Source: a virus (Duplodnaviria; Heunggongvirae; Uroviricota; Caudoviricetes). From it: a DNA stretch of 15,067 nt. This document shows, piece after piece, positions 1-15,067 of the stretch. The first letter of the stretch is position 1, and each line of letters starts with the position of its first letter. The notes under the pieces were generated by a model. The model searched no databases, was not told where the DNA came from, and was given only the letters and a program-made list of their open reading frames with translations. Where the stretch lies: the IMG/VR virus record IMGVR_UViG_2703718826_000001, one strand, 5' to 3'. The position numbers and the translations under genes were made by a program.

Positions 1-196
1 AATAAGTTGGAGTCATCACCCTATCTGCGTTAGGTGTTAATTTTGATGATATTTAAAATTATTTTTCCAGTTTTTTGATTTTTCAACGACTGAATATCGG
101 AAATAGTCAATGACGAACATCAGTATTTTTACATCATTACGTCCGGATCATTGTCGGTTTATCTCCTTTTACTTGTGGTAATTGAGGGATAACAAC

Positions 197-228
197 AAAA
201 AAGGTGAGTTTTGCGACTCACCTTTTTT
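197..228. terminator. bidirectional rho-independent terminator 3' of mlaA
   Basis: A-run 197-202, stem GGTGAGT 203-209 pairing with ACTCACC 216-222, T-run 223-228; forms hairpin plus U-tract on either strand; sits immediately after the mlaA stop (238-240, minus strand). Confidence 0.6.
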
Positions 229-237
229 ATTTATTTC

Positions 238-993
238 TTATTCAGAATCGATATCTTTTAAATCATCCTGAATCGCTTGCGCGTTCGGATTTTCCTGCGG
301 TTTGAGTTCGCCGCCATTAGCGATGAAATCATGACGCTGGAAGTACGCTTCGCGCACCATAATATAAGGATCGGACGACTGACGCAGCAGACCGTCGGAA
401 TCCAGCAGCTGAGCGCGGGTTTCGATCCCTTCAAGCGTCCATTTACCCACAGACATCGGCCAGGTCAACCAGGAAAGAACCGGGTAAAGACCATCCGCCA
501 TATCACCACCGTCATCACGCAGCGTGAAGCTACCGTAGAATGGTAACTGAACGTACGGCCCATAACCCACGCCATAATGACCAAGCGTACTACCGAAGCG
601 GTGAGGTTCAGTCCGTTGCAGTTTCGGGTTCGCCATCCCTGCAACATCAATAAAGCCGCCCATCCCCAAAATGGTGTTCAGGAAAAAGCGGGTAAAGTGG
701 ACCATCCCCTGATAAGGGTCGCCCTGCAAGAAGTAGTTAACCATCACCGCAGGTTCTTCAAGGTTGCCGGTAAAGTTGCTCAAACCGTTACGCGCCGGTT
801 GCGGAACATAATCACGCCAGGCGACAGCGACCGGTCGAACAATATACGGGTCTAATACATTGAAGTTGAAGTTGTACATGGTGCGGTTGAACCCTTCTAA
901 CGGGTCAGAACGCCCTTGCTGATCTGTACCGGAACTCGCACACCCCACCAGAAGCGTAGTTCCCAGAGCAAGCGCCGACAGGCGAAGCTTCAT
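238..993 (-). CDS. mlaA: MlaA (VacJ) outer-membrane lipoprotein, phospholipid transport
   Basis: 251-aa ORF; N-terminal signal peptide with lipobox LLVGC; sequence recognised from memory as E. coli MlaA/VacJ; expected synteny with yfdC and argW. Confidence 0.9.
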   Translation of the reverse strand: MKLRLSALALGTTLLVGCASSGTDQQGRSDPLEGFNRTMYNFNFNVLDPYIVRPVAVAWRDYVPQPARNGLSNFTGNLEEPAVMVNYFLQGDPYQGMVHFTRFFLNTILGMGGFIDVAGMANPKLQRTEPHRFGSTLGHYGVGYGPYVQLPFYGSFTLRDDGGDMADGLYPVLSWLTWPMSVGKWTLEGIETRAQLLDSDGLLRQSSDPYIMVREAYFQRHDFIANGGELKPQENPNAQAIQDDLKDIDSE

Positions 994-1286
994 AAATGTC
1001 TCCCTGTTTTTTTATGGCTTATGCAGTTTGCCATCCATGACGGAACGATACCGTATCCGCCTGTTTAGGTGTGGGCGATTGTAACAGCACGTCAACTGAT
1101 GTCCAGACGCCCTGATTTGCTGATTTGATCATAGCCTGGTAATCGCCGCCCTGTAGGCTACTTGATTCTATAGAAACAGAAAAAGGCAAACGCAGCCTTT
1201 TCTACATTTTCAGAGTAACTCCCGTCAGTTGCGAGCAAAAAAGCCGCTACGCTTTAGCTATACGTGCTAATTCAAGAGAAGAGACC

Positions 1287-2219
1287 ATGGACAACGACAA
1301 AATTGATCAACACAGCGACGAAATTGAAGTTGAGAGCGAAGAAAAAGAGCGCGGCAAAAAAATAGAAATAGATGAAGACCGACTCCCCTCCCGGGCGATG
1401 GCAATTCATGAGCATATCCGCCAGGATGGTGAAAAAGAGCTGGAACGCGACGCAATGGCGCTACTGTGGTCAGCCATTGCGGCGGGTCTGTCGATGGGCG
1501 CTTCGTTACTGGCAAAAGGGATATTTCATGTCGAACTGGAAGGTGTGCCGGGCAGCTTCTTGCTGGAGAAGCTCGGTTATACCTTTGGTTTTATTATCGT
1601 CATTATGGCCCGCCAGCAATTATTTACCGAAAATACCGTGACTGCGGTACTACCCGTCATGCAAAAACCGACAATGAGCAACGTCGGCTTACTTATACGG
1701 TTATGGGGCGTCGTGCTGCTGGGTAATATTCTCGGGACAGGTATTGCGGCGTGGGCATTTGAATATATGCCTATCTTCAATGAAGAAACTCGCGATGCAT
1801 TTGTCAAAATCGGCATGGATGTGATGAAGAACACCCCCAGCGAGATGTTTGCCAACGCGATCATTTCCGGCTGGCTGATCGCCACTATGGTTTGGATGTT
1901 TCCTGCAGCGGGTGCGGCAAAGATTGTGGTGATTATATTGATGACCTGGCTTATTGCCCTGGGTGACACCACCCATATCGTGGTCGGTTCTGTTGAAATC
2001 CTCTATCTGGTGTTTAACGGTACGCTGCACTGGAGCGATTTCATCTGGCCCTTCGCACTACCTACTTTAGCGGGGAACATCTGCGGCGGCACCTTTATCT
2101 TCGCGTTAATGAGTCATGCACAGATTCGTAACGACATGAGCAATAAGCGTAAAGCAGAAGCACGCCAAAAAGCAGAACGTGCGGAAAACATTAAGAAAAA
2201 TTATAAAAACCCGGCATAA
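1287..2219 (+). CDS. yfdC: YfdC, formate/nitrite-transporter-family inner membrane protein
   Basis: 310-aa ORF with multiple hydrophobic segments and a charged N-terminal region; divergent from mlaA and immediately upstream of argW as in E. coli; recognised from memory. Confidence 0.8.
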   Translation: MDNDKIDQHSDEIEVESEEKERGKKIEIDEDRLPSRAMAIHEHIRQDGEKELERDAMALLWSAIAAGLSMGASLLAKGIFHVELEGVPGSFLLEKLGYTFGFIIVIMARQQLFTENTVTAVLPVMQKPTMSNVGLLIRLWGVVLLGNILGTGIAAWAFEYMPIFNEETRDAFVKIGMDVMKNTPSEMFANAIISGWLIATMVWMFPAAGAAKIVVIILMTWLIALGDTTHIVVGSVEILYLVFNGTLHWSDFIWPFALPTLAGNICGGTFIFALMSHAQIRNDMSNKRKAEARQKAERAENIKKNYKNPA

Positions 2220-2277
2220 ATGGCGAGGGTTTAAGCAATCGAGCGGCAGCGTACTTACCCCGCACTCCATTAGCGGG

Positions 2278-2290
2278 TATACTCATGCCG
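2278..2290 (+). promoter_or_regulatory. putative argW promoter -10 (TATACT) and GC-rich discriminator
   Basis: TATACT at 2278-2283 followed by GC-rich CATGCCGC, 12 nt before the mature tRNA 5' end at 2295; no convincing -35 seen. Confidence 0.3.
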
Positions 2291-2294
2291 CATT

Positions 2295-2369
2295 GTCCTC
2301 TTAGTTAAATGGATATAACGAGCCCCTCCTAAGGGCTAATTGCAGGTTCGATTCCTGCAGGGGACACTT
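2295..2369 (+). tRNA. argW: tRNA-Arg (anticodon CCU)
   Basis: Cloverleaf readable by eye: acceptor GTCCTCT pairs with AGGGGAC, anticodon loop CTCCTAA, T-arm GGTTCGATTCC; matches E. coli argW from memory except the last two encoded nt are TT instead of CA (CCA end). Confidence 0.85.
2347..2367 (+). repeat. attL core: 21-bp direct repeat (3' end of argW)
   Basis: TTCGATTCCTGCAGGGGACAC is identical at 2347-2367 and 13946-13966; the first copy is the 3' end of the tRNA gene. Confidence 0.8.
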
Positions 2370-2480
2370 TAAAGACCTTTCTCTACATTTCACTTCATTA
2401 CATAACCACTTAAAAAACAGTAAGTTATCACCGAATCGGCCTGATTTTCATTTCAGTTAATTTCATGACATTACAACCTC

Positions 2481-2530
2481 GTGATGGTATAAGTGATGGT
2501 ATTCCCCAGTTCGATATGCAGATACCATCA
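2481..2530. promoter_or_regulatory. putative integrase arm-type binding sites (TGATGGTAT repeats)
   Basis: GTGATGGTAT at 2481-2490 and 2493-2502 (12-bp spacing) plus an inverted copy ATACCATCA at 2522-2530; the same tandem pair recurs inside the other island end at 13873-13893. Confidence 0.45.
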
Positions 2531-2540
2531 ATTTACCAAA

Positions 2541-3827
2541 ATGAGTACAGATATGGCCATTAATGTGCTTTCCCCCAAACAGATAGAAAACGCCAAGCCG
2601 AAGACCAATGATTACAAACTTACCGATGGAGGGAGTTTGTATCTACTGGTACGAAAGACTGGTGGAAAATACTGGCGTATGAATTATCGTTTTGATGGAA
2701 AACAAGTGACATTGGCATTAGGGGTCTACCCAGATGTCTCACTTGCAACAGCGCGGAAACGGCGTGATGAAGCCAGGCAACTACTAGCCGATGGTCGTGA
2801 TCCTCGCGAAGCAAAGAAACCCAAAAAGGAAGACCCAATTTCCCCCACGTTCGAGAGTGTTGCCAGAGAGTGGCATAGTGGAACGATGGGGCATCCTGAG
2901 TGGAAAGAGATCACCCGTAAAAAAATTCTCCGAGAAATGGAAAACCACCTCTTTCCTGCCATCGGTTCAAAGCCTATCGATACGCTCAAAACCCGTGACT
3001 TGATGCCGATGCTGGTTGAGATGACTGAGAAAGGAATTGGTGCCACAACGAGCCGGGTAAAAACCACTATGACGAGCATCTTCCGTTATGCAGTGCAACG
3101 TGGAATTGTCGATTACAACCCTGCCCACGATCTAAAAGGTGCAATTACGGCCCCCAAAGTACGACATCGCCCCGCACTACCTCTCGAACGTTTACCTGAA
3201 CTGTTAGCGAAAACGAGAAGTTACACGGGAAGACCATTGACTCGCCTAGCAGTTCTCTTTTCCCTGCACACTTTTGTGCGATCCAGCGAACTACGACATG
3301 CCAGATGGGAGGAGATCGACATTGAAAATGGGCTATGGACGATACCAGGACAACGTGAAGAGATCGCAGGGGTTAAATTCTCAGATCGGGGTGCAAAGAT
3401 GGGGGCTGCTCATTATGTCCCGCTATCTAGTCAGGCTATCGGGGTACTGGAGGATATAAGGAAAATCAGTGGTGAATATCTGCTGGTTTTCCCCGGTGAC
3501 AGCAACCCATATAAACCGATGAGCGAAAACACAGTTAATAAAGCACTGCGAACGATGGGTTACGACACTCAAACTGATGTATGCTTGCATGGGTTCAGGG
3601 CGATGGCCTGCTCTGCACTGACCGAATCAGGACTCTGGTCACGCGATGCAGTTGAACGGCAGATGAGTCACCAAGAAAGAAACGAAGTGCGGGCAGCATA
3701 TGTGCATCTTGCGCAGCACATGCAGGAACGCCGCAGAATGATGCAATGGTGGTCTAATTATCTGGAACTAAATAAGGACGAATTTCATGCTCCTTATGAC
3801 TTATCAGGTATTAACATTATCAATTAA
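2541..3827 (+). CDS. P4-type tyrosine integrase (start uncertain: 2493 GTG, 2541 ATG or 2553 ATG)
   Basis: N-terminal AKPK...Y.L.DGGSLYL...KYWRMNYRFDGKQ motif typical of P4-family integrases; C-terminal catalytic-region residues (R in VRSSELRHARWEEID, HGFRAM, AAYVH); located directly 3' of the tRNA; first 48 nt of the ORF overlap the arm-site repeats, so an internal ATG is preferred. Confidence 0.85.
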   Translation: MSTDMAINVLSPKQIENAKPKTNDYKLTDGGSLYLLVRKTGGKYWRMNYRFDGKQVTLALGVYPDVSLATARKRRDEARQLLADGRDPREAKKPKKEDPISPTFESVAREWHSGTMGHPEWKEITRKKILREMENHLFPAIGSKPIDTLKTRDLMPMLVEMTEKGIGATTSRVKTTMTSIFRYAVQRGIVDYNPAHDLKGAITAPKVRHRPALPLERLPELLAKTRSYTGRPLTRLAVLFSLHTFVRSSELRHARWEEIDIENGLWTIPGQREEIAGVKFSDRGAKMGAAHYVPLSSQAIGVLEDIRKISGEYLLVFPGDSNPYKPMSENTVNKALRTMGYDTQTDVCLHGFRAMACSALTESGLWSRDAVERQMSHQERNEVRAAYVHLAQHMQERRRMMQWWSNYLELNKDEFHAPYDLSGINIIN

Positions 3828-3857
3828 ATACTCTTATAATTTAAAACAGAGGTCATA

Positions 3858-4739
3858 ATGCAGCATTCAACAGAGAATGAAACTATATTCTTAGGAAATC
3901 TATGGATTGACAAAAAAATACCACCATTAGAATATTGTTCATTTGAACGCGCTTCAAGACTATTAGAATGCGAGATTGATGATTTATTACACCTATACGA
4001 AATAGGCGCTTTTAATATCGCATTCAAGGCGGATGGACTTGCAGTTAGATTTAATGTTAATTTCCTCAATAAAAATCAGAAAATGGAAATTGACTTAATT
4101 CATCCCGTATTAACTAATCAATCACTAGAGATGGAGTTTTCAACAATATGGTATGACCTTAAAGATGATTCCTTTGAACATTTTGAAAATGGGCTTCAAA
4201 TTATAGGATTTGCCTGTGGTATTTGGTACGCCGATGATATGATAAGTGACATAAAAAATGGATTAGCTATAGATCCAGATTATGAATTCAGGCTTAAACC
4301 GGTAAAAATACGAGATAATGTTTTGATGGCAACGGCCTCATATGAAGGAAATAAGGTCATTGATATTCCATTTGAAGATCTTCTTATCATGCGAAGAGAT
4401 TTAGAGTTAATATGGAAATCAGTAAAAACTGGAATTCCTATGCCAAGTTTACTTACGAAAAGAATTTCATCTGAACCTAAAATCCCCAAGCGATTAAATA
4501 ACACTGCTGAGCATCATGCAAAAAATAGGGAGGGGTTATTAAATGCAGCCATATATATTTTAGCAAAATACCCAAGCGAATGTCGTGGTGAAAGAAAAGA
4601 GATAAGTCCTGAAAAGTGGACTAACGCCATAATTAAACATTTAGGAGAGCTACCTCCAATATTTATCACTAATGAACAAGAAATCTTAAGAAAATTACGA
4701 TTAGCGGTTAATCATGCGGGGTTAAAACAAAAGGGGTAG
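3858..4739 (+). CDS. hypothetical protein (AT-rich orphan cargo gene)
   Basis: 293-aa ORF; markedly AT-rich against GC-rich neighbours; no domain recognised. Confidence 0.6.
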   Translation: MQHSTENETIFLGNLWIDKKIPPLEYCSFERASRLLECEIDDLLHLYEIGAFNIAFKADGLAVRFNVNFLNKNQKMEIDLIHPVLTNQSLEMEFSTIWYDLKDDSFEHFENGLQIIGFACGIWYADDMISDIKNGLAIDPDYEFRLKPVKIRDNVLMATASYEGNKVIDIPFEDLLIMRRDLELIWKSVKTGIPMPSLLTKRISSEPKIPKRLNNTAEHHAKNREGLLNAAIYILAKYPSECRGERKEISPEKWTNAIIKHLGELPPIFITNEQEILRKLRLAVNHAGLKQKG

Positions 4740-4805
4740 ACTGAAACAATCTACAGGTAGAGTTGATTACACTACCTTCACAGCATTTTGATATCCCCAT
4801 AGTAT

Positions 4806-4833
4806 CTGCCGTGTTCATTACATAACACGGCAG
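4806..4833 (+). promoter_or_regulatory. inverted repeat (10-bp arms, 8-nt spacer) just upstream of alpA
   Basis: CTGCCGTGTT 4806-4815 and AACACGGCAG 4824-4833; right arm ends 8 nt before the alpA ATG and overlaps the likely ribosome-binding region. Confidence 0.35.
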
Positions 4834-4841
4834 GTAATTTC

Positions 4842-5057
4842 ATGACATTAAAAACTTATCCTATCACTGGACATGCCCGCCCACGAGCTACTGCTGACTT
4901 TTTGCAAATAAGTACGGTTACTCTCTGGCGCTGGGAAAAGAACAATCCTGAATTTCCCAAATCTATACGCATTTCAAAACGGGTATCTGTTTACGATGCA
5001 CAAGAAATTAGGCAGTGGGTTAAAGCTCAATCAGCAGGATTGGAGGAAGTAGTGTAA
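4842..5057 (+). CDS. alpA: AlpA-family phage regulatory protein (excision regulator, HTH)
   Basis: 71-aa ORF; FLQISTVTLWRWEKNNPEFPKSIRISKRVSVYDAQEIRQWV fits the AlpA/Xis-like pattern (T-I/L-Y/W ... FP.P ... R.V.W ... EI..W). Confidence 0.7.
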   Translation: MTLKTYPITGHARPRATADFLQISTVTLWRWEKNNPEFPKSIRISKRVSVYDAQEIRQWVKAQSAGLEEVV

Positions 5058-5106
5058 TGACAATATTAACAAAGCTGGGGAGAAAAAAGCCTCCCCAACG
5101 TATTAA

Positions 5107-5301
5107 TCAATTCTTTGGTTCTAAACCTCGGCTTTGTAACTCTTTGCGTAGAATGCGCTTGATCCAAGCCGCTAGCGATTCATCGCCATCCTGCTGTTGT
5201 GCTTGTTCCATCAGTTCACGCAGTTCAGGGTCAAGTCGGAACTGGAATGGCGGATTCCCACGTCTTTCATTTTTGTGTGTTGACACGTCAATTACACCCA
5301 T
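5107..5301 (-). CDS. putative ribbon-helix-helix (Arc/CopG-like) DNA-binding protein
   Basis: 64-aa ORF; PPFQFRLDPELRELMEQ ... SLAAWIKRILRKEL resembles a beta-strand/helix/helix RHH fold; divergent from the downstream small-gene operon; the competing plus-strand ORF 5057-5407 is Ser/Cys-rich and implausible. Confidence 0.5.
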   Translation of the reverse strand: MGVIDVSTHKNERRGNPPFQFRLDPELRELMEQAQQQDGDESLAAWIKRILRKELQSRGLEPKN

Positions 5302-5334
5302 TGTAATGTATTTATGTGTAATGACACATTACAC
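5289..5334. promoter_or_regulatory. operator-like dyads ATTACA-N5-TGTAAT and TGTAAT-N5-ATTACA in a divergent promoter region
   Basis: ATTACA 5291-5296 / TGTAAT 5302-5307 and TGTAAT 5317-5322 / ATTACA 5328-5333, lying between and over the start of the RHH gene and upstream of the Icd-like gene. Confidence 0.4.
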
Positions 5335-5417
5335 ACAGAAAAACAAAATAGCAACGCCCCGGAGTGTTTGCAGCAGCACCGAGGCGTCTGACCAGCACGT
5401 TATATGAGGTAACGAAG

Positions 5418-5594
5418 ATGGCTAAACAGAAGTGTACCTGGTTATTTGCGGCGATCAACCGCAGTCAACGTAATGCCCGTCCGGTGATGTTAAGGATCAT
5501 CGCAGATAACGAACGATCAGCGCGGCGCAGACTTGCCCCGGACTATGTACTGAGCTTTGCCGGGCGCATTCCCTGCGGAGGTGAACATGCGTAA
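5418..5594 (+). CDS. Icd-like host cell-division inhibitor family small protein (putative)
   Basis: 58-aa ORF from the internal ATG with GAGG upstream; pattern W.FAA..R....RPVML.I.A.NE..ARR.LA.DYVLSFAGRIP recalled as typical of Icd-like proteins in P4-like islands. Confidence 0.5.
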   Translation: MAKQKCTWLFAAINRSQRNARPVMLRIIADNERSARRRLAPDYVLSFAGRIPCGGEHA

Positions 5595-5946
5595 TTATCC
5601 GCACCCCGGCGAACGCTGGCAGCATGAACGTGGCTGGACGGTCACGATTATCCGATTAATAGAAGCCTCGCCCTCTGTGGCGCTGGTTAATCCTGAATTC
5701 AGCTGTGAAGTGCTGATACGTCATGACAGCGACAACCAGCTATCCTCCTGCCCTCTGGCATGGTTTGAACAGCGGTATACGCGCCTGTTTGATGTACCGC
5801 TCTTTAAGCCTGCACCAGCTCCTGCAGGCGGTAGTGGTTCCGGCCCGCTGACACTGCATCCGTCTGTGCTATTTATCCGCTGGCGGGAGCGTAGCATATG
5901 GCGCTCTGCTGAGCCTGACGACGGTCACTATTCAAAGTTTCTCTGA
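5587..5946 (+). CDS. hypothetical protein
   Basis: ATG at 5587 preceded by GGAGG at 5-nt spacing; overlaps the preceding stop by 8 nt; no domain recognised. Confidence 0.5.
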   Translation: MRNYPHPGERWQHERGWTVTIIRLIEASPSVALVNPEFSCEVLIRHDSDNQLSSCPLAWFEQRYTRLFDVPLFKPAPAPAGGSGSGPLTLHPSVLFIRWRERSIWRSAEPDDGHYSKFL

Positions 5947-5977
5947 CAAAATACCGCTGAAAACGGAGTAATCCACG

Positions 5978-6262
5978 ATGAATATTTCAAACGGGCACAA
6001 CGGTGCTCAGGGCCACACTTTGCCTGAAAAACACAATACCGGTGCTTTTGCCTATGGGTTGTCAGAGGACAGTTTCGGAAAGCTGACCCGCGCAAGAAAT
6101 GCCTGCGACATGCTCCAGCTTCTCTTTTCTGAATACCCGTCTCAGGCCGGAGCACTGGACGCTGGCTGTGCGCATGGTGTCGCCGCGCTGATGGAGTACC
6201 TGCTGGCAGATTTGACGGATATTGCACACAGCTGCGCACTGATTGAAGGAGGTGCCAGATGA
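5978..6262 (+). CDS. hypothetical protein
   Basis: 94-aa ORF with GGAG upstream; GC-rich like the primase operon; stop overlaps the next start (ATGA). Confidence 0.55.
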   Translation: MNISNGHNGAQGHTLPEKHNTGAFAYGLSEDSFGKLTRARNACDMLQLLFSEYPSQAGALDAGCAHGVAALMEYLLADLTDIAHSCALIEGGAR

Positions 6263-6642
6263 ACCAGCCGCAGGTTTCCATTTTCCCGGCAGAAATGACC
6301 ACCGCGCTTTACCGGCGGGCTATTGCTTCAGCATGGCGGCAGAAAATGCTGAACGAAACTGGCAGTGATCAGTATGGTCCGCACAGCCTGACGGTGGAGC
6401 GTATTGAAATGGCCATTGCGCTGCATATCGAGTGCGTACTGATTAACGAGTACGGCGAAGTGCAGGGCGCCGCTGCCGCGCTGGCACTGCTGACTGACAT
6501 GCTGGAGCCGTCACTGCTGACCGCGCCGCCGGTACTGACCGCGCGCGGCTGTGAAGTGATGGCGGAGATGTACCGCACGCTTCCGGCGGCCTTTGATGAC
6601 TTCTGCAGTACCGGTGTGACGTTGTATGAGGGGGAAGTATGA
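6259..6642 (+). CDS. hypothetical protein
   Basis: 127-aa ORF coupled at both ends by ATGA overlaps (6259-6262 and 6639-6642). Confidence 0.6.
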   Translation: MNQPQVSIFPAEMTTALYRRAIASAWRQKMLNETGSDQYGPHSLTVERIEMAIALHIECVLINEYGEVQGAAAALALLTDMLEPSLLTAPPVLTARGCEVMAEMYRTLPAAFDDFCSTGVTLYEGEV

Positions 6643-9311
6643 CAATACAGACGGTTACGCAGATTTCAGCCGCCGCACGGGGGAAATGGCCCGTTATTCT
6701 GCAGATGCTGCGTATTGATGTACCTGAAAACGGCAGGCACGGTCCCTGCCCGAAATGTGGGGGCAAGGATCGTTTTCGCCTTGATGACCTTGACGGGCGC
6801 GGGACGTGGATCTGCAGCCAGTGTGGCAATGGTGACGGTCTGGATCTGGTTAAGCTCGTAACCGGTTACAGCGTCAGAAAGGCTGCGCAGGAGGTGGCGC
6901 AGGTGCTTAATGTGCCGGATGTGCAGGAACTGCCTGTTAAGCCTGCCAGACAAAAAGCCCCTAAACGCGACATGGGTCTTACCGTGGCGGCGCTGATGAA
7001 AGAGAGCCACACGGGAGAAAGCGCCTATCTGACAGGAAAAGGGTTCGCCGGATACCCGGCCTCTCTGACCGGAAGCGTGCAGCATATCAGCGGTAAGGAT
7101 TTTCCTGCCGGTTCCCTGCTGTTACCACTCACGACCAACACCGGAGCCGTGACCGGTGCACAGCTTATCGCCCCGACGGGTGAAAAAAGCATACTGCCCG
7201 GCAGCACGATGAAAGGCGCGTTTGTGTCGCTCAGCCCGTTACCGTCTGAACCACCGGTACAGGTGGTGATTACCGAAGGTTACGCTACGGCGCTGACGGT
7301 AAGCCAGCTCACTGCCGGATGCGTAGTGGCTGCCATATCTGCGGGCAACCTGCCCAATGTGGCGCAGTCGCTGCGGGCACGCTGGCCTGAGGTAAAAATT
7401 ATCATCGCCGGTGATAACGATTTTCAGGACGGGGGTGAGAATCCCGGCAGAGCCTTTGCTGAACGGGCGGCAAAAGCTGTTGGCGGCTGGATGACGCTGC
7501 CACCAGGAGAGATTAAGGCTGACTGGAATGACTTTCATCGGGAGCACGGTATTACCCGTGCCCGTGAAGCCTTTCGCAACGGTCTGGTACTGTGCGGGGA
7601 AGGCCGCACGCAACTGCCGCACGGGTTCCGTCTTACCCAGGAATATCTCTGGTATGAAAAGCAGGTACAGCGCAACGGTGAGACGGAGATCCAGAACGTC
7701 AAAATATGCAGCCCGCTGCGCGTGACGGCAATCACCTGCGATGCCGATGGCGGTAACTTCGGACGACTGCTGGAATGGGAAGATACGTGGGGTGAGTGTC
7801 GCCGCTGGGCGATGCCGATGGAAATGCTGAGCGGCAGTGGTGAGGAACTGCGCCGGGTACTGCTGGTTAACGGGCTGTCTTATATCAGCACCACCGGTGA
7901 GGCACGCGCACGCCTGATGGAATATATCTCACTGTGTAAACCGGAACGCCGCGTGACCTGCGTCAGTCGTACTGGCTGGCATGGTCAGGTTTACGTCCTG
8001 CAGGATGAGGTCAGCGGTGAAGGTGCAGAGGGTGTCATTCTCCAGACCACTTCCGTGCAGGGGCGTGATTTCCGCGTGTCGGGCACAACAGAGGAATGGC
8101 GGGAGCATGTATCCCGCTACTGTACCGGCAACTCCCGCGTGGCATTTGCTGTCAGCCTGGCCTTTGCTGCACCACTGTTACGGCTGGTTGGTATGGACGG
8201 CGGCGGCTACCACCTCAAAGGGGAATCGACAGACGGTAAGACCACCACCATGAAAGCGGCAACCTCCGTCTGCGGCGGGCCTGACTACTGGCAGACATGG
8301 CGGGCCACCGGCAACGCGCTGGAGGGATGCGCCAGCCGCCGCAACGATGCTGCCATGATGCTTGATGAGATCCGGGAAGTTGACGGACGCGAGGCAGGCA
8401 ATATCGCCTACATGCTGGCAAACGGTCAGGGCAAGGGCCGTGCCGGTACGGACGGTGAGCTGCGTACCCGTAAGCAGTGGCGCCTGTTGTTCTTTTCAAC
8501 TGGCGAGTTGTCTCTGACCGAACATGCGGCAAAGGCCGGTGAGCGTACTTTTGCCGGGATGGAAGTCAGGATGATCCAGATCCCCAGCGATTCCGGGAAG
8601 TTTGGCGTTTTTGAGGAGCTGCACGGCTTCGACAGCGGCAAGGCTCTGGCAGAGCATCTTGAATGGGCCACGTCCTGCTACTACGGTTCGCCGTTCCGGG
8701 AGTGGCTGAAAGCACTGACCGCTGATCTTAACGGACTAACGGCACAGGCAAAATCGCTGATGAAGGAATATGCTGCCGCCCTGACTCCTAAAGATGCAGG
8801 CAATCAGGTGGGCCGGGCTGTGAACCGCTTTGCACTGGTGGCGATGGCAGGTGAACTGGCAACCCGTCTGGGTATCACCGGCTGGCCTGAGGGTGAAGCA
8901 CTGCGGGCAACCCGCGTCTGCCTGAACGCATGGCTGAAAGATCGCGGGCACACCGCCAATCAGGAAGATATCGCCGCACTGGAGCAGGTTCGCAGTTTCT
9001 TTACCGCGAATCAGTACAGCCGCTTTGCAGACTGGTATGACGAGCGCAACCGCCCCGGCAATATGGTGGGCTGGCGCAGGGTGGAGAAAGGCAGTACCGC
9101 GCAGGGCACGGAAGCTGTCACTACGTTCTATGTCATGCCGTCCGGCTGGAAAGAAATCTGCAGGGGATTTGACCCGCGCAAGGTGGCGCGTCTGTGCGTA
9201 GATCGTGGATACCTGCTGCCCTCCACTGATGGCAAACTCCAGACAACCATTCGCCCGCCAGAGATGAATCCCCGCAGGCTCTATGTCTTCAACAGCGAGG
9301 TGCCGGGTTAA
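6639..9311 (+). CDS. P4 alpha-like primase-helicase (zinc-ribbon, Toprim, DUF927/D5-like NTPase)
   Basis: 890 aa; N-terminal CPKCGG...CSQCG zinc ribbon; Toprim-like ITEGYATA and AGDND; Walker A KGESTDGKTT near 8221-8247; GC-rich. Confidence 0.9.
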   Translation: MTIQTVTQISAAARGKWPVILQMLRIDVPENGRHGPCPKCGGKDRFRLDDLDGRGTWICSQCGNGDGLDLVKLVTGYSVRKAAQEVAQVLNVPDVQELPVKPARQKAPKRDMGLTVAALMKESHTGESAYLTGKGFAGYPASLTGSVQHISGKDFPAGSLLLPLTTNTGAVTGAQLIAPTGEKSILPGSTMKGAFVSLSPLPSEPPVQVVITEGYATALTVSQLTAGCVVAAISAGNLPNVAQSLRARWPEVKIIIAGDNDFQDGGENPGRAFAERAAKAVGGWMTLPPGEIKADWNDFHREHGITRAREAFRNGLVLCGEGRTQLPHGFRLTQEYLWYEKQVQRNGETEIQNVKICSPLRVTAITCDADGGNFGRLLEWEDTWGECRRWAMPMEMLSGSGEELRRVLLVNGLSYISTTGEARARLMEYISLCKPERRVTCVSRTGWHGQVYVLQDEVSGEGAEGVILQTTSVQGRDFRVSGTTEEWREHVSRYCTGNSRVAFAVSLAFAAPLLRLVGMDGGGYHLKGESTDGKTTTMKAATSVCGGPDYWQTWRATGNALEGCASRRNDAAMMLDEIREVDGREAGNIAYMLANGQGKGRAGTDGELRTRKQWRLLFFSTGELSLTEHAAKAGERTFAGMEVRMIQIPSDSGKFGVFEELHGFDSGKALAEHLEWATSCYYGSPFREWLKALTADLNGLTAQAKSLMKEYAAALTPKDAGNQVGRAVNRFALVAMAGELATRLGITGWPEGEALRATRVCLNAWLKDRGHTANQEDIAALEQVRSFFTANQYSRFADWYDERNRPGNMVGWRRVEKGSTAQGTEAVTTFYVMPSGWKEICRGFDPRKVARLCVDRGYLLPSTDGKLQTTIRPPEMNPRRLYVFNSEVPG

Positions 9312-9345
9312 GGCTTTGCGTGAGTCTTATTTATTAAGGGTAACA

Positions 9346-9533
9346 GGTGAAACAGGTGGAACAACCGTATTTTACAGGGCTGAACCTGATCCACCTTCTG
9401 AAATAGTGAGGTGGAACAGATGTAACGCCAGCCAATCCGCTGTTCCACCTTGTTACCCGCGATGTTCCACCGGTGCAGTGTATATAAATGCCTTATAAAA
9501 CAAAGCAGTAACACATGTTTCACCTGTTCCACC
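9346..9533. repeat. iteron cluster (putative replication origin / crr-like region)
   Basis: Seven copies of the 9-mer GGTG(G/A)AACA: plus orientation at 9346-9354, 9355-9363, 9410-9418; reverse complement at 9441-9449, 9463-9471, 9516-9524, 9525-9533; an AT-rich stretch at 9481-9500 lies between them; immediately 3' of the primase-helicase gene. Confidence 0.6.
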
Positions 9534-9621
9534 GCATCAGGGACATAAAGCAGACTGAAACAGAGGGTATTTTTATCTGGCTGGCTTTCATAGCCACGTC
9601 TGAATAACCGCAAGCGCCCGT

Positions 9622-9639
9622 TGTGCCAGCCACCACACA
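9622..9639 (+). promoter_or_regulatory. putative Ogr/Delta-type activator site (TGT-N12-ACA) of a late promoter
   Basis: TGT 9622-9624, 12-nt spacer, ACA 9637-9639, about 75-90 bp upstream of the Sid-like ATG (9712); AGGAG Shine-Dalgarno at 9702-9706. Confidence 0.25.
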
Positions 9640-9711
9640 CTGAGCACCGATAGTGTGCTTGTGTCAGCCACGACACAATTGACGTAACGAACCAACCCGA
9701 CAGGAGAAGTC

Positions 9712-10455
9712 ATGAACAACACCGCAGTGAATAACAACCTTTCCACTTTTCCGGCTGTAACGCAGCGGGCACTGGAAACCATGAACACAGCCAGAAACGC
9801 ATGGCTTGAAGCACGTCGTCAGCAGAAAGCGGCAGCGGATAATATTGCGACAATCCGCCAGCGTCGCGCTGAAATGGAAGCCACGACGAACACACTGAAT
9901 GAGGAGTGGCGCACGCTGTTTCGTGAAAGTCAGGGCGTGGTCTCAAAGGAAATGAAAAAACTGCGCACGGAAATTGCGCTGGGACGAGAAACGCTTGAGG
10001 ATTTTGATGAGCTGCTGGCGGCTCAGGAAAGCGAAAATGCACTTTTGCCGCAGAAAGCTGCGGAATTAGCCGGAAAGTATATCCACGCGCATAACATTCT
10101 TGTGGATATTCGCGCAAAACAAATCTGGGAAGATTTTATGCAGTCGCATGGAAAAGCGCTTATTCAGACGCTGAGCCTGCTTAAATCCACAATGGGCCGG
10201 GAAGCCAGTGCCGTTGTGGGTGTGGTGAATTCAGTTAATGACCCGGACACAGTGCTGAAAGACTTTATTCATAAACATATCACCAGACCGGCTCTGGCTA
10301 ACGATGCGATGCCTGAACAGGACCCGGTGTTTAAACTGGCGGGAGTTGCCCCGGATTATGCGGCGCGTCTGGATTTCAGTAATCAACTCTCTCCGGCAGC
10401 TATGCATAAAATAAAGGTTCGTCAGGAACTTGCTGAGAAGGAGAAAGCAGTATGA
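9712..10455 (+). CDS. Sid-like putative capsid size-determination (external scaffold) protein
   Basis: 247 aa, Ala/Glu/Lys/Leu-rich and presumably helical; size and position (first gene of the late operon, before the Psu-like gene) match P4 Sid; N-terminus resembles the Psu N-terminus as I recall it. Confidence 0.55.
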   Translation: MNNTAVNNNLSTFPAVTQRALETMNTARNAWLEARRQQKAAADNIATIRQRRAEMEATTNTLNEEWRTLFRESQGVVSKEMKKLRTEIALGRETLEDFDELLAAQESENALLPQKAAELAGKYIHAHNILVDIRAKQIWEDFMQSHGKALIQTLSLLKSTMGREASAVVGVVNSVNDPDTVLKDFIHKHITRPALANDAMPEQDPVFKLAGVAPDYAARLDFSNQLSPAAMHKIKVRQELAEKEKAV

Positions 10456-11003
10456 CGGCCCGAGGCACACCTGACCAGGCACTTACCAGTTTTCGGAATG
10501 CCCGTATTCTGTGGGCCGGACATAGTGAGAGCCGAAAAGCCGTTGAACAACAGATAACATCTCTCCTCGCTGCCACAGAAAAACCAGCAGATTATGCCCG
10601 ACAGCTCGAATTACTGCGGGAACGTCTGGATGTGCTGAAATGGCAAATTAACTGTGCTGCTCGGGAATGCATTTACTCGCAGCATTTATTGATGGAGGCC
10701 TGCACAGAAGCTGCTCTCAGCAATTTTATGCAGGCGAATGGGGCAGCCCTGACATCTGCACTGGCTCCGTTCCTGAAGGGGCGCGGAGGGGTTGACGTTG
10801 CGTCCCGTATATTACGCAGTGCTCTGGTTCGCCAGCTGGCAATAACACCGCCTGAAATTGCCGGGGATTATCGTGAGATCCTGGATGAATCCGGTTTGAT
10901 GCCAGACCCCGGGATGATTCGTGATTGCCAGGGCTCTTACACCCCGGCACAACATCTGCGTTTTCAGCAACGCCTGAATGACATTAACGATATACAGGAG
11001 TGA
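10452..11003 (+). CDS. psu: Psu-like polarity suppression / capsid decoration protein
   Basis: 183 aa; motifs KWQIN, FMQANGAALTSALAP and YTPAQ match my recollection of P4 Psu; AAGGAG upstream; start overlaps the previous stop (ATGA). Confidence 0.65.
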   Translation: MTARGTPDQALTSFRNARILWAGHSESRKAVEQQITSLLAATEKPADYARQLELLRERLDVLKWQINCAARECIYSQHLLMEACTEAALSNFMQANGAALTSALAPFLKGRGGVDVASRILRSALVRQLAITPPEIAGDYREILDESGLMPDPGMIRDCQGSYTPAQHLRFQQRLNDINDIQE

Positions 11004-11008
11004 TATTA

Positions 11009-11281
11009 ATGGCACTTAAATGTCCGGAATGCGGTACAGTTGCACACGCCAGAACAGCAGCCTATGAAGCTCCGTCAGTTAAACGCTCGTGGTATCAGTG
11101 CCAGAATCTGGAATGTTCCTGCACATTTACGGCACTGGAGAGTGTGGATAAGATAATCATGAAACCCCGGCGCAATGAACAGGAACCAGACAAATCACAA
11201 ACCCCGGTAAAACAACAGCAAACGCTCAATCGCTATGGCTCCGCGTCAAAACTGTCAAGCCGTCAGCAGATTCCTGTCTAA
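11009..11281 (+). CDS. Ogr/Delta-family zinc-finger late transcription activator
   Basis: CPECG...AHARTAAY...YQCQNLECSCTF...ESV closely resembles P2 Ogr (CPLC...AHARTSRY...YHQCQNVNCSATF...ESV); AGGAG 8 nt upstream of the ATG at 11009. Confidence 0.85.
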   Translation: MALKCPECGTVAHARTAAYEAPSVKRSWYQCQNLECSCTFTALESVDKIIMKPRRNEQEPDKSQTPVKQQQTLNRYGSASKLSSRQQIPV

Positions 11282-11304
11282 TTAGAAAAAAACGCCCACG
11301 TAAT

Positions 11305-11327
11305 CCCGGTCGAGTACCGGGATTTTT
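11305..11327 (+). terminator. rho-independent terminator after the late operon
   Basis: Stem CCCGGT 11305-11310 pairing with ACCGGG 11316-11321, loop CGAGT, followed by ATTTTT 11322-11327. Confidence 0.6.
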
Positions 11328-11766
11328 AACACCTTTTCCCTGGCTGGCCTGAGAGCGCATGAGTGCATGTCTATAGCGCATGAAAACGCATGAACCTTAT
11401 GCACCATTTTTGACGAGAAAGCCCTTGTGTGGTGGCTTCTGAGACGATTTATGAGGTGCATGAAAACCAGTCTGTTAAGCGAAGCGGGCAGGCGTGCGGG
11501 GCTGTTCGCATCAACATAAAAATAACGGGCTGATATAGTTATAAAATCAAATGAACTCTTTTAGTACGACATGGGTATGTGCGCCAGTAGCAACGTCAGC
11601 CCCCAAGCTTTCTATTGTTCTTTTCTGTTGTACCATCAATACGTACCGATTAGCTCCTAAGCATCAATATCAGTTTGAACGTATTGCTTTGAACTAATTT
11701 TTAGATGATTTTTTTCATTAAAAAATTATAATGTTGTAGATAAAAAGAGAATCTTATAGAGGCGTT

Positions 11767-12615
11767 ATGTCAAATAAAGTTGATGTTTTTTTGAGCCGAG
11801 TTAGCCATGTATCACAGTTTGTATTGGTGGCATTTGCTATTTTTGGATATTTTTATACAGTAAGACCAATTTACCAAAAGGAACTTTTATCAGAAGACAT
11901 TGCAAAAAAAGAAGTTGAATTAAATAAATTAAAAACTGCAATGGAAAACTCCCAAAAATTTATAGAGAATAATAAAATCTTACGAAAAGAATTGGAGGGA
12001 AGCATTGCCAAACTTGATTTACAATACAAAGAATCAGAAGAAAAATTAAATTCAATAAATTCTGAACTAAGAAAAACTTTAAATGAACTAAATAAACAAA
12101 AGACCATTGCCAAAAGAGCGGTCAATGCAAACAACAAGAATCTTGAATCTGTTTTCTGGGAGAATTTTTCGGGGCTAGTTGGAGTAGTTTATATTTCTAA
12201 GAGCACAGATTTTGTGAACAATACACTGGGTGACGCCAAAACAGCCTATAATACTCCTAGTAATTTATATATATCTCCTTATGATGCAATTAATGAAGCA
12301 TTAAAAAATGGCAATCATAACTTTATCTCAAGTTCAGAAAATGTCCCTGAAAATATCCGCAACAAAATTCTAGCAAAGATCCGTCGCGCTATTGAAAAAA
12401 ATAAGATTTCATTAACAAAAAAACCTATCGGTTTTGATGAAAAAATTAATAGTCTGATAAAAACTATAGAGTCAACTAAGTTACGCAAAAATGAAAACGA
12501 AATAATGAAAAATAACACTGCAGAAAGAGAACTATCATCTTATATTTTCCTGATAAATGGTCAATCAAGAATCCGCGCCATGGATTTCTTAAAAGACATT
12601 CAACATTTAGACTAA
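11767..12615 (+). CDS. hypothetical membrane-anchored coiled-coil protein (cargo gene A, candidate defence component)
   Basis: 282 aa; AGAGG 4 nt upstream of ATG; one N-terminal hydrophobic helix (VSQFVLVAFAIFGYFYTV) then a Lys/Glu/Asn-rich heptad-like region; strongly AT-rich; no known domain recognised. Confidence 0.75.
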   Translation: MSNKVDVFLSRVSHVSQFVLVAFAIFGYFYTVRPIYQKELLSEDIAKKEVELNKLKTAMENSQKFIENNKILRKELEGSIAKLDLQYKESEEKLNSINSELRKTLNELNKQKTIAKRAVNANNKNLESVFWENFSGLVGVVYISKSTDFVNNTLGDAKTAYNTPSNLYISPYDAINEALKNGNHNFISSSENVPENIRNKILAKIRRAIEKNKISLTKKPIGFDEKINSLIKTIESTKLRKNENEIMKNNTAERELSSYIFLINGQSRIRAMDFLKDIQHLD

Positions 12616-12631
12616 TATTGGATATCTTATA

Positions 12632-13336
12632 ATGAATACTAATACTAAATTTGATTTATGGTTGATTAGAGTAAGTTACATTGCCCAAGTTGGATTGTTT
12701 TTTTTGACAACCTTTACAATATTTTACACAGTAATTCCGATATACCAAAATGCAAATCTGCAGGAATCAATAGCAAAAAAAGAAATCGAATATAAACAAT
12801 TACAAGACAAAGAAAAAACTCTATATTTAAAGTTAAGAAAGGAATATTCAAGAAAATATGTTGTTGATGCAATCTCCCAATGTTCTCCAACAGAAATACT
12901 TATGCGTCAACCATCTGAAGATGACAGTAAAAAATCACATGATGTAAGAATGAAGGAATTAAAAACATTTTTAAACAAAGATATAACCAGTTGCTTTGAA
13001 AAAACTTTTTATAGCAACCCTTACATTAAGGAATTAAGAGACACTGATCAACAAAATATTCTTGTTAAAATTAAAAATTTATCCCCCTCTATAACTAAAC
13101 TACATGAAAAATATAAAGCAGAATTTGATGACGATAGCAAGTTATTGAATACTGGAAAAGAAAAATCGACAAGATTAAAAGAGGTGGAAGATTATTTAAT
13201 AGGAATAGGAGGTTACACAGAAAACAGCAAAAAGGATTTTGAAAACTCATACATAGAATCTGGAGCATATGACTTGGTTGTAAGGTATGGTTTTGAAGTC
13301 AACGATCTATTTTCCAAAACCATCAGAGACAATTAA
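12632..13336 (+). CDS. hypothetical membrane-anchored protein, N-terminal paralogue of gene A (cargo gene B)
   Basis: 234 aa; begins 16 bp after gene A; N-terminal helix (IAQVGLFFLTTFTIFYTV) and the FYTV-PIYQ ... IAKKE motif shared with gene A; divergent C-terminus. Confidence 0.75.
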   Translation: MNTNTKFDLWLIRVSYIAQVGLFFLTTFTIFYTVIPIYQNANLQESIAKKEIEYKQLQDKEKTLYLKLRKEYSRKYVVDAISQCSPTEILMRQPSEDDSKKSHDVRMKELKTFLNKDITSCFEKTFYSNPYIKELRDTDQQNILVKIKNLSPSITKLHEKYKAEFDDDSKLLNTGKEKSTRLKEVEDYLIGIGGYTENSKKDFENSYIESGAYDLVVRYGFEVNDLFSKTIRDN

Positions 13337-13347
13337 TTAGGTGAACA

Positions 13348-13377
13348 ACCTCCTCTATTTTAATTAATAGAGGAGGT
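13348..13377 (+). terminator. perfect 12-bp stem-loop 3' of cargo gene B (putative terminator or RNA-stabilising hairpin)
   Basis: ACCTCCTCTATT 13348-13359, loop TTAATT, AATAGAGGAGGT 13366-13377; begins 12 nt after the stop; no clean U-tract follows. Confidence 0.45.
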
Positions 13378-13872
13378 GCTTAAATTATAAAAACATTTCA
13401 GGTTTGATTTAGATAACACGCAAATAAAAAACAAACTAATGAAATATATAAATTAATTCTTAGGTATAAAATGTTACAATTAGAATATATTTAATTTTTA
13501 ACTTTAAATCATGATAAATCTAAAAGTAAGCACCCAAAAAACCTTCAAAACACAATACGTCGTGTCTCAACCCCATGGTATTTAGGGTTAAACCAAGTTA
13601 TAGCGCTGACTGGTGAGCGGTTTGAAGTCATTCTGGTATACATAAAATGAAAAAATACATTGGGAGATATACCCCTGACTTACAGAGCTGGTAACGGTTA
13701 CCAAGTCGCATTGTGTAATGCGTGGGGTGTAAAATTTTTTGGGTATTTTTTATCCAGTAGCAGGTTAGCCTGCCCCCCCTGCTCCTAACGTTCTTTCATT
13801 CCTCTTTTCATCATTTTTAGAACGATATAAACAGATGGATCTCTATGGTTTTAATGAGTCGATTTTATCGTC

Positions 13873-13893
13873 TGATGGTATCCATGATGGTAC
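13873..13893 (+). promoter_or_regulatory. putative integrase arm-type sites at the attR end
   Basis: TGATGGTAT 13873-13881 and TGATGGTAC 13885-13893, same motif and 12-bp spacing as at 2481-2502. Confidence 0.45.
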
Positions 13894-13945
13894 CTAAGAG
13901 AGAAAATAAAAAATAATACTTAAAAAACATGAAATTATAAATACT

Positions 13946-13966
13946 TTCGATTCCTGCAGGGGACAC
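13946..13966 (+). repeat. attR core: 21-bp direct repeat (partial tRNA 3' end); probably also the attL of the next island
   Basis: Identical to 2347-2367; here followed by CA (13967-13968), i.e. the canonical tRNA CCA end. Confidence 0.8.
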
Positions 13967-14143
13967 CATGCACACCTCTCCTGAAATCTACCATACCCCA
14001 CAAAAAGCCTTTATAATCAGCACATACCCTTACTTATGTTACTCAAATAGTCGCCTTAATTCTCCTCAGGGGAACGTAAATCAAGTCACATTTGGGGGCC
14101 TATTTAGGGGCACATCTTGGTCAATCTATTGCGAGGCCCCCAG

Positions 14144-15067
14144 ATGCCACTGACAGCTCGACAAGTTGAAACAGCCAAACCCAAAGATAAAATTTATAAG
14201 ATTGCCGATGGTGGTGGGCTCTACCTTCAGGTCAATCCTAACGGCTCAAAGTACTGGCGAATGAAGTACCACTATGCGGGGAAGGAAAAGAAACTATCAT
14301 TTGGCACCTATCCAACTATTACATTGGCTGAAGCTCGCAAACGTCGGGATGAAGCCAAGAAAATACATGCCGATGGTAAAGATCCCGGTGAAGTCAAGAA
14401 AGCTGAAAATCTTGAGAAAAACCTTTCCGAAGGAAGAACTTTTGCCGCAATCGCCACCGAGTGGTACAACGCAAAAGTTTCAGGCTGGTCTGCCAGCTAC
14501 GCTGATTATGTCGACAGAGCATTCAAAAATAATGTGTTTCCCTACATTGGAAACAGACCCATTAGTGAAATCGAACCTCTTGAACTTCTCGCAGTTCTTC
14601 AGCGTATCGAAAGCCGAGGAGCCTGCGAGCTAGCTAATAAAGTTCGCCAACGATGTGGTGAAGTGTTTCGGTATGCCATTGTTACAGGTCGGGCACGATA
14701 CAATCCAGCTTCTGATCTGGTTATAGCAATGAAAAGCTATAAGCGAACACATTACCCTTTCCTGCTTCCTCCTGAACTACCAGAGTTTTTATACAAACTC
14801 GAAAACTACACCGGCAGTATTGTAACCCGTGAAGCTACAAAATTGTTGATGCTCACAGGGCTGAGAACAGTAGAATTACGTATGGGGGAATGGTGTGAGA
14901 TCGATTTTACCCAAAAGATATGGGAAGTTCCTCCGACCCGGATGAAAATGAGGAAGGAGCATATCGTCCCTCTGTCAGATCAGGCAATCCAGTCTCTGCA
15001 AATCCTCAAAGAACTGACTGGAAGATACAGATACATCTTTGCCGGAATGGATTTGCCCCTATATTTC
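14144..15067 (+). CDS. second P4-type tyrosine integrase, 3'-truncated by the window end
   Basis: Hand translation from ATG 14144 gives MPLTARQVETAKPKDKIYKIADGGGLYLQVNPNGSKYWRMKYHYAGKEKKLSFGTYP...LTGLRTVELRMGEWCEIDF... with no stop to 15067 (308 codons); N-terminus parallels the first integrase; absent from the ORF track for lack of a stop codon. Confidence 0.85.
   Translation, partial: MPLTARQVETAKPKDKIYKIADGGGLYLQVNPNGSKYWRMKYHYAGKEKKLSFGTYPTITLAEARKRRDEAKKIHADGKDPGEVKKAENLEKNLSEGRTFAAIATEWYNAKVSGWSASYADYVDRAFKNNVFPYIGNRPISEIEPLELLAVLQRIESRGACELANKVRQRCGEVFRYAIVTGRARYNPASDLVIAMKSYKRTHYPFLLPPELPEFLYKLENYTGSIVTREATKLLMLTGLRTVELRMGEWCEIDFTQKIWEVPPTRMKMRKEHIVPLSDQAIQSLQILKELTGRYRYIFAGMDLPLYF

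Follow-up and report, generated by a model that had tools for sequence, protein, structure and literature searches.

The window analysed here is the whole 15,067-nucleotide stretch of a viral IMG/VR record (IMGVR_UViG_2703718826_000001; Caudoviricetes), and it holds an insert of 11,599 bp in the tRNA gene argW. This insert is very probably a P4-family satellite of a common Escherichia coli lineage, with its modules rearranged relative to phage P4. An earlier note on the same DNA had proposed an insert in argW of about 11.6 kb, close to P4 in length and bounded by identical 21-bp direct repeats, and both the size and the repeats were borne out. The repeat TTCGATTCCTGCAGGGGACAC is perfect at 2347-2367 and 13946-13966, while simple arithmetic gives about 3e-5 exact 21-bp repeat pairs expected by chance in 15 kb. 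When joined, the flanks (window 1-2367 plus 13967 to the end) form a gapless 3,259-bp alignment to E. coli FDAARGOS_536, an empty site in which argW passes straight into the right flank of the window. Because the joined flanks align gaplessly to an insert-free genome, the insert is delimited to the base. The unit is 25 bp shorter than P4 (11,624 bp, NC_001609), and all of its genes but one, which encodes a ribbon-helix-helix (RHH) protein, lie on the plus strand. The features of the satellite and its attachment sites are the following.

2295-2367, plus strand: argW, tRNA-Arg(CCT), called by ARAGORN and Rfam; its last 21 nt are the attL core
2347-2367: attL core, left-hand 21-bp direct repeat
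2458-2473, plus strand: 16-nt motif TAATTTCATGACATTA near attL, recurring at 4835-4850 (alpA start codon) and inverted at 13928-13937 near attR
2482-2530: P' arm, with a tandem pair of the octamer TGATGGTA on the plus strand (2482, 2494) and, just upstream of the int start, a third, inverted copy on the minus strand (2523)
2553-3827, plus strand: tyrosine integrase of P4 type, 424 aa if read from the start chosen for RefSeq relatives (the open reading frame (ORF) opens at 2493)
3858-4739, plus strand: orf293, of low GC (0.34) and without a transmembrane (TM) segment, a backbone gene in all argW relatives examined
4842-5057, plus strand: AlpA-family helix-turn-helix protein (Pfam PF05930, E=1.6e-7)
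5107-5301, minus strand: Arc/YlcI-like RHH protein (phrog_228, Arc-like repressor; NF041551), divergent from the early operon
5316-5336: perfect 9-bp inverted repeat TGTGTAATG-ACA-CATTACACA between the RHH gene and icd
5418-5594, plus strand: Icd/Kil-like cell-division inhibitor (NF033153, E=2e-23), 54% identical to the C-terminal part of the P4 cI/kil ORF
5587-5946, plus strand: orf119 (phrog_30862), weakly similar to P4 orf151
5978-6262, plus strand: orf94 (phrog_14861), dissimilar to P4 epsilon
6259-6642, plus strand: DUF5375 protein (Pfam), homologue of P4 orf106 (cnr), with 40% identity and PHROG 5991 in common
6639-9311, plus strand: primase-helicase, 890 aa, a Zn-ribbon and Toprim fused to a DUF927 helicase
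9346-9533: candidate replication origin, eight iterons GGTGRAACA (four forward, four reverse) around an AT-rich patch
9622-9639 and 9660-9677, plus strand: two TGT-N12-ACA dyads upstream of sid
9712-10455, plus strand: Sid homologue, 247 aa, external capsid-size scaffold (phrog_6165, E=9e-93, end to end)
10452-11003, plus strand: Psu homologue (Pfam Psu, E=1.5e-44; phrog_6366, as P4 Psu), 30% identical to P4 Psu
11009-11281, plus strand: Delta, a single Ogr/Delta zinc-finger activator (PF04606, E=7e-16)
11302-11328, plus strand: late-operon terminator, a stem-loop followed by a U-run
11362-11509: cos region, homologous to the P4 right end and to cos of P2-like phages
11491-11509: putative 19-nt cohesive end GGCGTGCGGGGCTGTTCGC, in register with the 19-nt cohesive end of P4
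11510-13872: variable cos-adjacent hotspot, GC 0.31; homology to sister elements stops at 11504-11509
11767-12615, plus strand: cargo gene 1 (orf282), 282 aa, with an N-terminal TM helix, a coiled coil of about 120 residues and a helical C-terminal domain
12632-13336, plus strand: cargo gene 2 (orf234), 234 aa, paralogous to gene 1 over its first ~70 residues; the helical C-terminal domain is of another kind
13873-13892, plus strand: P arm, with TGATGGTA in tandem at 13873 and 13885
13946-13966: attR core, the right copy of the direct repeat, continuing into ...ACACCA, the displaced native 3' end of argW

The family assignment was made with the seven core P4-like components of de Sousa & Rocha 2021 (PMC8628076). 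Five of them, int, psu, delta, sid and alpA, are clearly present, alpha is present in part, and epsilon was not found. The published alpha profile may or may not score the DUF927 replicase, and the count is hence 5 or 6 of the 7 components; these lie within 9 kb, and the rule asks for at least five that are co-localised. Judged from its genes, the element fits Type B (without epsilon) or Type C (without epsilon and alpha), inside the P4-like family. Its order is int-alpA-primase-sid-psu-delta-cos-cargo with co-directional modules, which does not match the prototype order int-psu-delta-sid-alpA-epsilon-alpha and is not explicitly described in the survey of Types A and B (PMC8628076). The 12 backbone genes have the same lengths as those annotated in RefSeq relatives, and no frameshift was seen. 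Sid, Psu, Delta and the Cnr-like protein fall into the same PHROGs as their P4 counterparts.

The attachment sites follow the geometry of P4. Six copies of the arm octamer TGATGGTA were found, compared to 0.45 expected, and the tandem pairs are 12 bp apart. The spacing from arm to core is 53 and 114 nt, compared to about 54 and about 113 nt in the annotated P4 attP, whose design of two tandem 12-bp arm repeats per side plus one inverted copy beside the int start is the one seen here. The right arm of three sisters that carry other cargo retains both repeats and a core spacing of 53-54 nt, while the surrounding DNA has diverged. The persistence of the repeats amid diverged DNA is therefore the strongest sequence-level sign of selection on these sites. 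The predicted attP junction would read ...AATTATAAATACT-TTCGATTCCTGCAGGGGACAC-TTTAAAGACC. The sixth octamer copy (11631-11638, minus strand) lies about 140 nt past cos within the cargo segment; it also occurs in the sister CH4811, and may be there by chance.

The integrase contains the Pfam domains Arm-DNA-bind_3, Phage_int_M and Phage_integrase, is 52% identical to P4 Int over 409 aa, and retains the RSSELR, HGFR and RAAY motifs. P4 Vis matches the same Pfam family as the AlpA-family protein, which is a candidate excisionase or regulator and the likely counterpart of Vis. The TAATTTCATGACATTA motif, from its positions, may be a candidate binding site for AlpA/Vis. Integration has also altered the target gene. 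In the lysogen, argW ends with ...GGGGACAC followed by TTT, so that the genomically encoded CCA is lost, and the native ...ACACCA end now stands at attR (window 2360-2370 and 13959-13969). Accordingly, the RefSeq annotation of this tRNA is 72 nt long in carrier genomes and 75 nt at the empty site. With its CCA lost on integration, the maturation of the tRNA would depend on 3' trimming and the CCA-adding enzyme.

The RHH gene holds the same position in the sister ESY001, and we infer that its product is a candidate repressor of the early operon. The palindrome at 5316-5336 overlaps face-to-face promoter-like sites (5321-5349, plus strand; 5327-5300, minus strand) and is plausible as a candidate operator. 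Scans of the window for consensus promoters and terminators did not rise above the shuffled background. In an Rfam scan (E<=0.1) the tRNA was the sole match, and neither a P4 CI-like nor any other RNA family was recovered.

In the primase-helicase, residues 6-316, which comprise the Zn ribbon and Toprim, match the primase part of P4 alpha at 38% identity. Downstream of this gene, seven exact copies of GGTGRAACA and one near copy (the single mismatched member of the set of eight, forward and reverse together) all fall within 9346-9533; the 8-mer GGTGRAAC occurs seven times, compared to 0.86 expected. The cluster sits between the replicase gene and sid, as does the P4 origin with its type I repeats GGTGAACA. 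The iteron is nearly the same as this P4 repeat, yet the presumed origin-binding part of the replicase is unlike P4 alpha.

The late operon encodes Sid, Psu and Delta. P4 Sid matches the same phrog_6165 (6e-116) as the Sid of the window, and the two proteins are 24% identical in pairwise comparison (E=1e-12). A tblastn search of Sid against 50,697 phage records gave no match, and the homology to P4 Sid appeared only in pairwise and profile comparison; a megablast of the whole element against the same records gave no match either. Some RefSeq genomes label the 247-aa gene as a second Psu, a designation we rejected because of the end-to-end match to the Sid PHROG. Delta aligns to each half of P4 Delta and has one domain only. 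Upstream of sid, the two TGT-N12-ACA dyads agree at 16/18 positions, and the second aligns with the dyad of the P4 sid promoter (Psid). We take this dyad to be the Ogr/Delta recognition element of P2 and P4, and the region 9622-9677 is a candidate late promoter activated by Delta or Ogr.

The cos region (11362-11509) is about 70% identical over 140 nt to Peduoviridae phages, P2-like 500465-1 and MLG42 among them, and AAGCGGGCAGGCGTGCGGGG is identical in Escherichia phage 500465-1. In the phages, the matching position lies where the early genes (replication gene A, DinI) end, ahead of the accessory genes and, beyond these, the portal gene. The 19-nt sequence GGCGTGCGGGGCTGNNCGC is common to the sisters PM4, isolate 58 and CH4811, which cannot be aligned directly beyond it. 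No capsid, tail or lysis family (Pfam, PHROG, NCBIfam) was found in the ORFs scanned, beyond coiled-coil noise.

Much of what the earlier note had read from the letters held up. The arm-type repeats inside both ends, the uninterrupted integrase, AlpA, the iterons and the lack of structural or lysis genes of its own are all as it described. It had named frameshifts in int or the primase, together with a lack of excision products, and proteins outside the P4 family as grounds for doubt; no such frameshift was seen, and the protein comparisons point to the P4 family. The primase-helicase is P4 alpha-like only in its primase part, the helicase part being of another type. The Sid/Psu/Ogr-Delta operon is intact, as stated, with low similarity to P4 Sid (24%) and Psu (30%). 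The description as a complete P4-like satellite applies to most core components, cos, the att sites and the origin, and has to be amended for epsilon, the DUF927 helicase and the gene order. The earlier note did not list the cos site.

Between cos and the P arm lies the cargo. Orf282 and orf234 have a GC of about 0.3 and one N-terminal TM segment each, and share their first ~70 residues (hhalign probability 99.3%), a module made up of the TM segment and 'PIYQ..L.E.IAKKE'. Each belongs to a small, unnamed family of Enterobacterales. Their AlphaFold models are confident (pLDDT 87 and 88) and all-helical: the TM segment and coiled coil form one very long helix, and a helical domain comes after it. 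Foldseek against the PDB returned nothing better than E=0.19 for either model. The non-significant matches (E 0.4-3) were recurrently components of ClyA-family alpha-pore-forming toxins (AhlB, AhlC, SmhB, ClyA, MakA); this resemblance between predicted structures offers a lead towards a membrane-disrupting effector, not evidence for one. PADLOC-DB v2 gave no match at E<=0.1 for orf282, orf234 or orf293, and Pfam and NCBIfam returned coiled-coil noise only for the same three proteins. None of the systems named in PMC13586616 resembles the pair. A profile of the cargo family matched 692 cluster representatives, mostly via the N-terminal module, and a Pfam scan of 10 of these gave no informative domain.

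At least four different satellite backbones carry the cargo pair in the slot beside cos. The cargo of the window is present in seven genomes, CH4811 included; in CH4811 the orf282 homologue (L001:13421-14267) is annotated as two short ORFs, probably through a frameshift, while the gene is intact in the window. An Enterobacter P4-like element carries the pair 3' of an Ogr-like gene and a cos-like sequence, and the pair also occurs in a Cronobacter island. No remnant of the Ogr-like gene that accompanies the cargo in Enterobacter and Cronobacter was found in the window, and the cargo is not preceded by a TGT-N12-ACA dyad. In a Citrobacter argW satellite the pair lies between Ogr and int. This satellite (Citrobacter sp. 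wls714, L048, GCA_005281025.1) carries AlpA, a P2-type major-capsid-like gene (Phage_cap_P2), Ash, DUF5375, a DUF927 primase and Ogr, followed by the cargo pair and int; it has neither sid nor psu, and from this gene content it may represent a different capsid-hijacking design. In Klebsiella pneumoniae (L045, L046) the pair (281 and 234 aa) adjoins a 979-aa NACHT/STAND NTPase at proA, with no satellite genes near. Elsewhere the slot is filled otherwise: PM4 has a YecA-family protein, isolate 58 a hypothetical protein of 398 aa and ESY001 the retron St85. In the window, about 530 bp without an ORF (13337-13872) separate cargo gene 2 from the P arm; they include a GC-richer patch at about 13540-13800 and gave no Rfam match.

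The defence hotspot of P4 adjoins cos (PMC9122126; PMC8628076; PMC13586616), and of eight unknown P4-hotspot loci picked at random, six conferred protection (PMC13586616), which makes a defence role for the cargo a reasonable bet. That the two genes form a new two-component, membrane-anchored anti-phage system is a tentative proposal, to which we give somewhat less than an even chance, and we hold it jointly with a secondary point, helper sensing that is independent of epsilon. With a candidate RHH repressor and no epsilon found, this lineage may differ from P4 in how it senses or derepresses its helper.

At least 80% of the backbone is present in 61 of 5,426 complete E. coli genomes, and every one examined has it at argW. 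The part from icd to cos also occurs with another integration module, in about a quarter of an evenly spaced sample of 1,019 matching records; the resulting figure of roughly 250 genomes that combine the replication and late modules with other integrases is an extrapolation from the sampled records. ESY001, at tRNA-Leu, is an example of these shared modules. Many genomes have sid, psu, delta and cos sequences that are conserved at 92-99%. The backbone (2368-11509) is nearest to PM4 (99.9%), which has other cargo, whereas the cargo segment (11510-13945) is nearest to PD4 and CH4811 (99.8%); the CH4811 backbone is only ~99.3% identical to that of the window. As backbone and cargo have different nearest relatives, the element is a mosaic, consistent with cargo exchange at cos.

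Backbones 99-99.9% identical precede three right flanks, namely dsdC, an OmpH/UpaE island and a second integrase island. One backbone next to three flanks argues for independent, recent and repeated integrations. The argW locus has been called highly variable in a passage of PMC3032704 that cites Moritz & Welch 2006. To the left of argW, the window carries mlaA (238-993, minus strand) and yfdC (1287-2219). To the right, a second P4-type integrase (14144-15067) begins 178 bp beyond attR. This right flank (14144-15067) is found 100% identical, directly after argW, in at least 244 E. coli genomes. At 15048 the flank is interrupted by a sequence equal to the terminal 20 nt that adjoin an annotated IS2 (L015:10621-10640). 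The satellite therefore stands in tandem with an older, decaying island.

Several results weigh against the reading of this element as a P4-family satellite that is still mobile. There is no helper prophage in the window. The attP junction was not found in IMG/VR, and the 29 IMG/VR loci encoding Sid relatives gave no evidence of a circular form or of attP. In three sister elements (PM4, isolate 58 and CH4811) the attR core is one G shorter than attL, which may mark the position of strand exchange or reflect an attP polymorphism; the attL and attR cores of the window are identical. The shorter core reads TTCGATTCCTGCAGGG-ACACCA (L001:15598, L005:17174, L006:17418), and the right flanks of all three differ. 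The second half of the 19-nt cohesive end differs from every phage cos found, and therefore no specific helper was identified. No ORF of the window matches epsilon (PF25738 / phrog_10016) by BLASTP, Pfam or PHROG, and neither orf94 nor orf119 has BLASTP similarity to P4 epsilon. The replicase continues after its primase part as DUF927 instead of the D5_N/DUF5906/Pox_D5 of P4, with no similarity between its C-terminal part and P4 alpha. A second, crr-like iteron cluster was not found in the element.

Part of this would be expected of a domesticated, immobile island derived from P4, kept for a benefit of its cargo or of Psu/Icd to the host and inherited vertically at argW. Such an island would fit with the missing epsilon, with IMG/VR yielding neither attP nor a circular form, and with the imperfect attR of the three relatives; in addition, other copies carry IS insertions, and in one of them delta is truncated beside IS2. 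In the copy of the window, however, all genes are intact and the att repeats perfect, and the arm sites are conserved while the adjacent DNA diverges. Vertical descent is also at odds with a backbone that stands beside three right flanks and whose replication and late modules are also found beside a different integrase at a different tRNA, and the swapping of cargo exactly at cos implies ongoing exchange. We therefore regard domestication as unlikely. Judging by its intactness and its spread across flanking contexts, the element may reasonably be expected to retain the ability to excise, replicate and be packaged.

The DUF927 helicase matches the structures of the Rep helicase of Staphylococcus aureus pathogenicity islands (SaPI; 8tch and 5dgk), which raises the question of a hybrid resembling these or other phage-inducible chromosomal islands (PICI), with borrowed sid-psu-delta-cos and a helper anti-repressor that acts on the RHH repressor. 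The co-directional int, alpA and replicase, the small divergent repressor, and the failure to find epsilon or a P4 CI-like RNA family would agree with this. Against it, Kil/Icd, the orf151-like protein, Cnr and the primase domain are P4 homologues, the capsid-size and packaging genes are P4-type, cos is P2-type, and no PICI-type terS, Rpp or Ppi family was found. We consider such a hybrid very improbable. P4 can persist as a plasmid, and the element has its own replicase and origin; it might thus be imagined as a helper-free, plasmid-like integrative element in which Sid, Psu and Delta are relics. This is scarcely credible, given the 92-99% conservation of the three genes and of cos in many genomes, and given that Pfam scans of the window ORFs revealed no mobilisation or conjugation genes. 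All P4-like sets surveyed were, moreover, chromosomal (PMC8628076). A P4-family satellite therefore remains by far the preferred reading.

A life cycle can be outlined for this satellite from P4 biology; the integration boundaries are the part that was observed. On integration, the 3' end of argW would be the target with which the integrase recombines attP, made up of the P arm (13873-13892), the core and the P' arm (2482-2530). Excision would call on AlpA as well as Int. While the satellite is a prophage, the RHH protein, acting at 5316-5336, probably keeps the early operon (icd, orf119, orf94, the cnr-like gene and the primase-helicase) silent. After induction, replication would start from the iteron origin (9346-9533) through the action of the primase-helicase. 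The Ogr of a P2-like helper, or the Delta of the satellite, would switch on the promoter that carries the dyads ahead of sid. Sid would constrain the capsid protein of the helper to a small shell, which Psu would decorate while also countering Rho. Cleavage at cos (11491-11509) by the helper terminase would lead to packaging of the 11.6-kb genome; candidate helpers would be P2-like phages whose cos begins with GGCGTGCGGGG. The segment past cos serves as a swappable slot, and the membrane-anchored coiled-coil paralogues that now occupy it would most likely be anti-phage, in the service of both host and satellite.

Enterobacterales abound in P4-like satellites, which are recognised as a reservoir of anti-phage systems, and one further copy therefore adds little. 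The value of the window copy is that of a clean, fully delimited example, with att sites, arms, origin, late promoter, cos and hotspot. It represents a frequent E. coli lineage that departs in gene order, replicase and epsilon from the P4 prototype behind the detection rules. The end of sister homology at the last base of the putative cohesive end pinpoints the position of cargo exchange. Finally, the cargo is an uncharacterised gene pair, repeatedly associated with satellites and defence islands, and a cheap candidate for phage challenge.

Compared to P4, the element shares the insertion into the 3' end of a tRNA gene, although the target is leuX in P4 and argW here. The families in common are AlpA/Vis, Kil/Icd-like, Cnr (DUF5375), the Zn-ribbon/Toprim primase, Sid, Psu and Delta. 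Both have 8-9-bp iterons of the GGTGAAC type upstream of sid, a TGT-N12-ACA late dyad, a P2-type cos directly adjoined by accessory genes, a length of 11.6 kb and no structural genes. P4 has epsilon, a two-finger Delta and crr, whereas in the window no epsilon was found, Delta has one finger and no crr-like cluster was seen. Where P4 alpha has a D5-type helicase/origin-binding half, the window has DUF927. Unlike in P4, the late order is sid-psu-delta, the late and early operons are co-directional, int lies upstream of alpA, and the RHH gene is divergent. The cohesive end differs from that of P4 after position 11.

PICI and SaPI satellites resemble the element in the int-alpA-replicase layout, the Rep-like DUF927 helicase and the small divergent repressor. 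No families of the PICI genes terS, rpp, ppi or cpm occur in any ORF of the window, which has Sid, Psu, Delta and a P2-type cos instead. In the P4-like satellites of classical order in E. coli O157:H7 (e.g. NZ_CP017440, L014), the sid-psu-delta-cos segment is 92.6% identical at the DNA level and the hotspot likewise follows delta-cos. These differ from the element in a P4-style divergent early operon, a 777-aa D5-type alpha, an int located beyond the hotspot and an ABC-three-component cargo. The sisters PM4, isolate 58 and CH4811 at argW, and ESY001 at tRNA-Leu, have backbones 98.7-99.9% identical to that of the window and are alike in architecture, with ESY001 set apart by a different int-alpA-RHH module.

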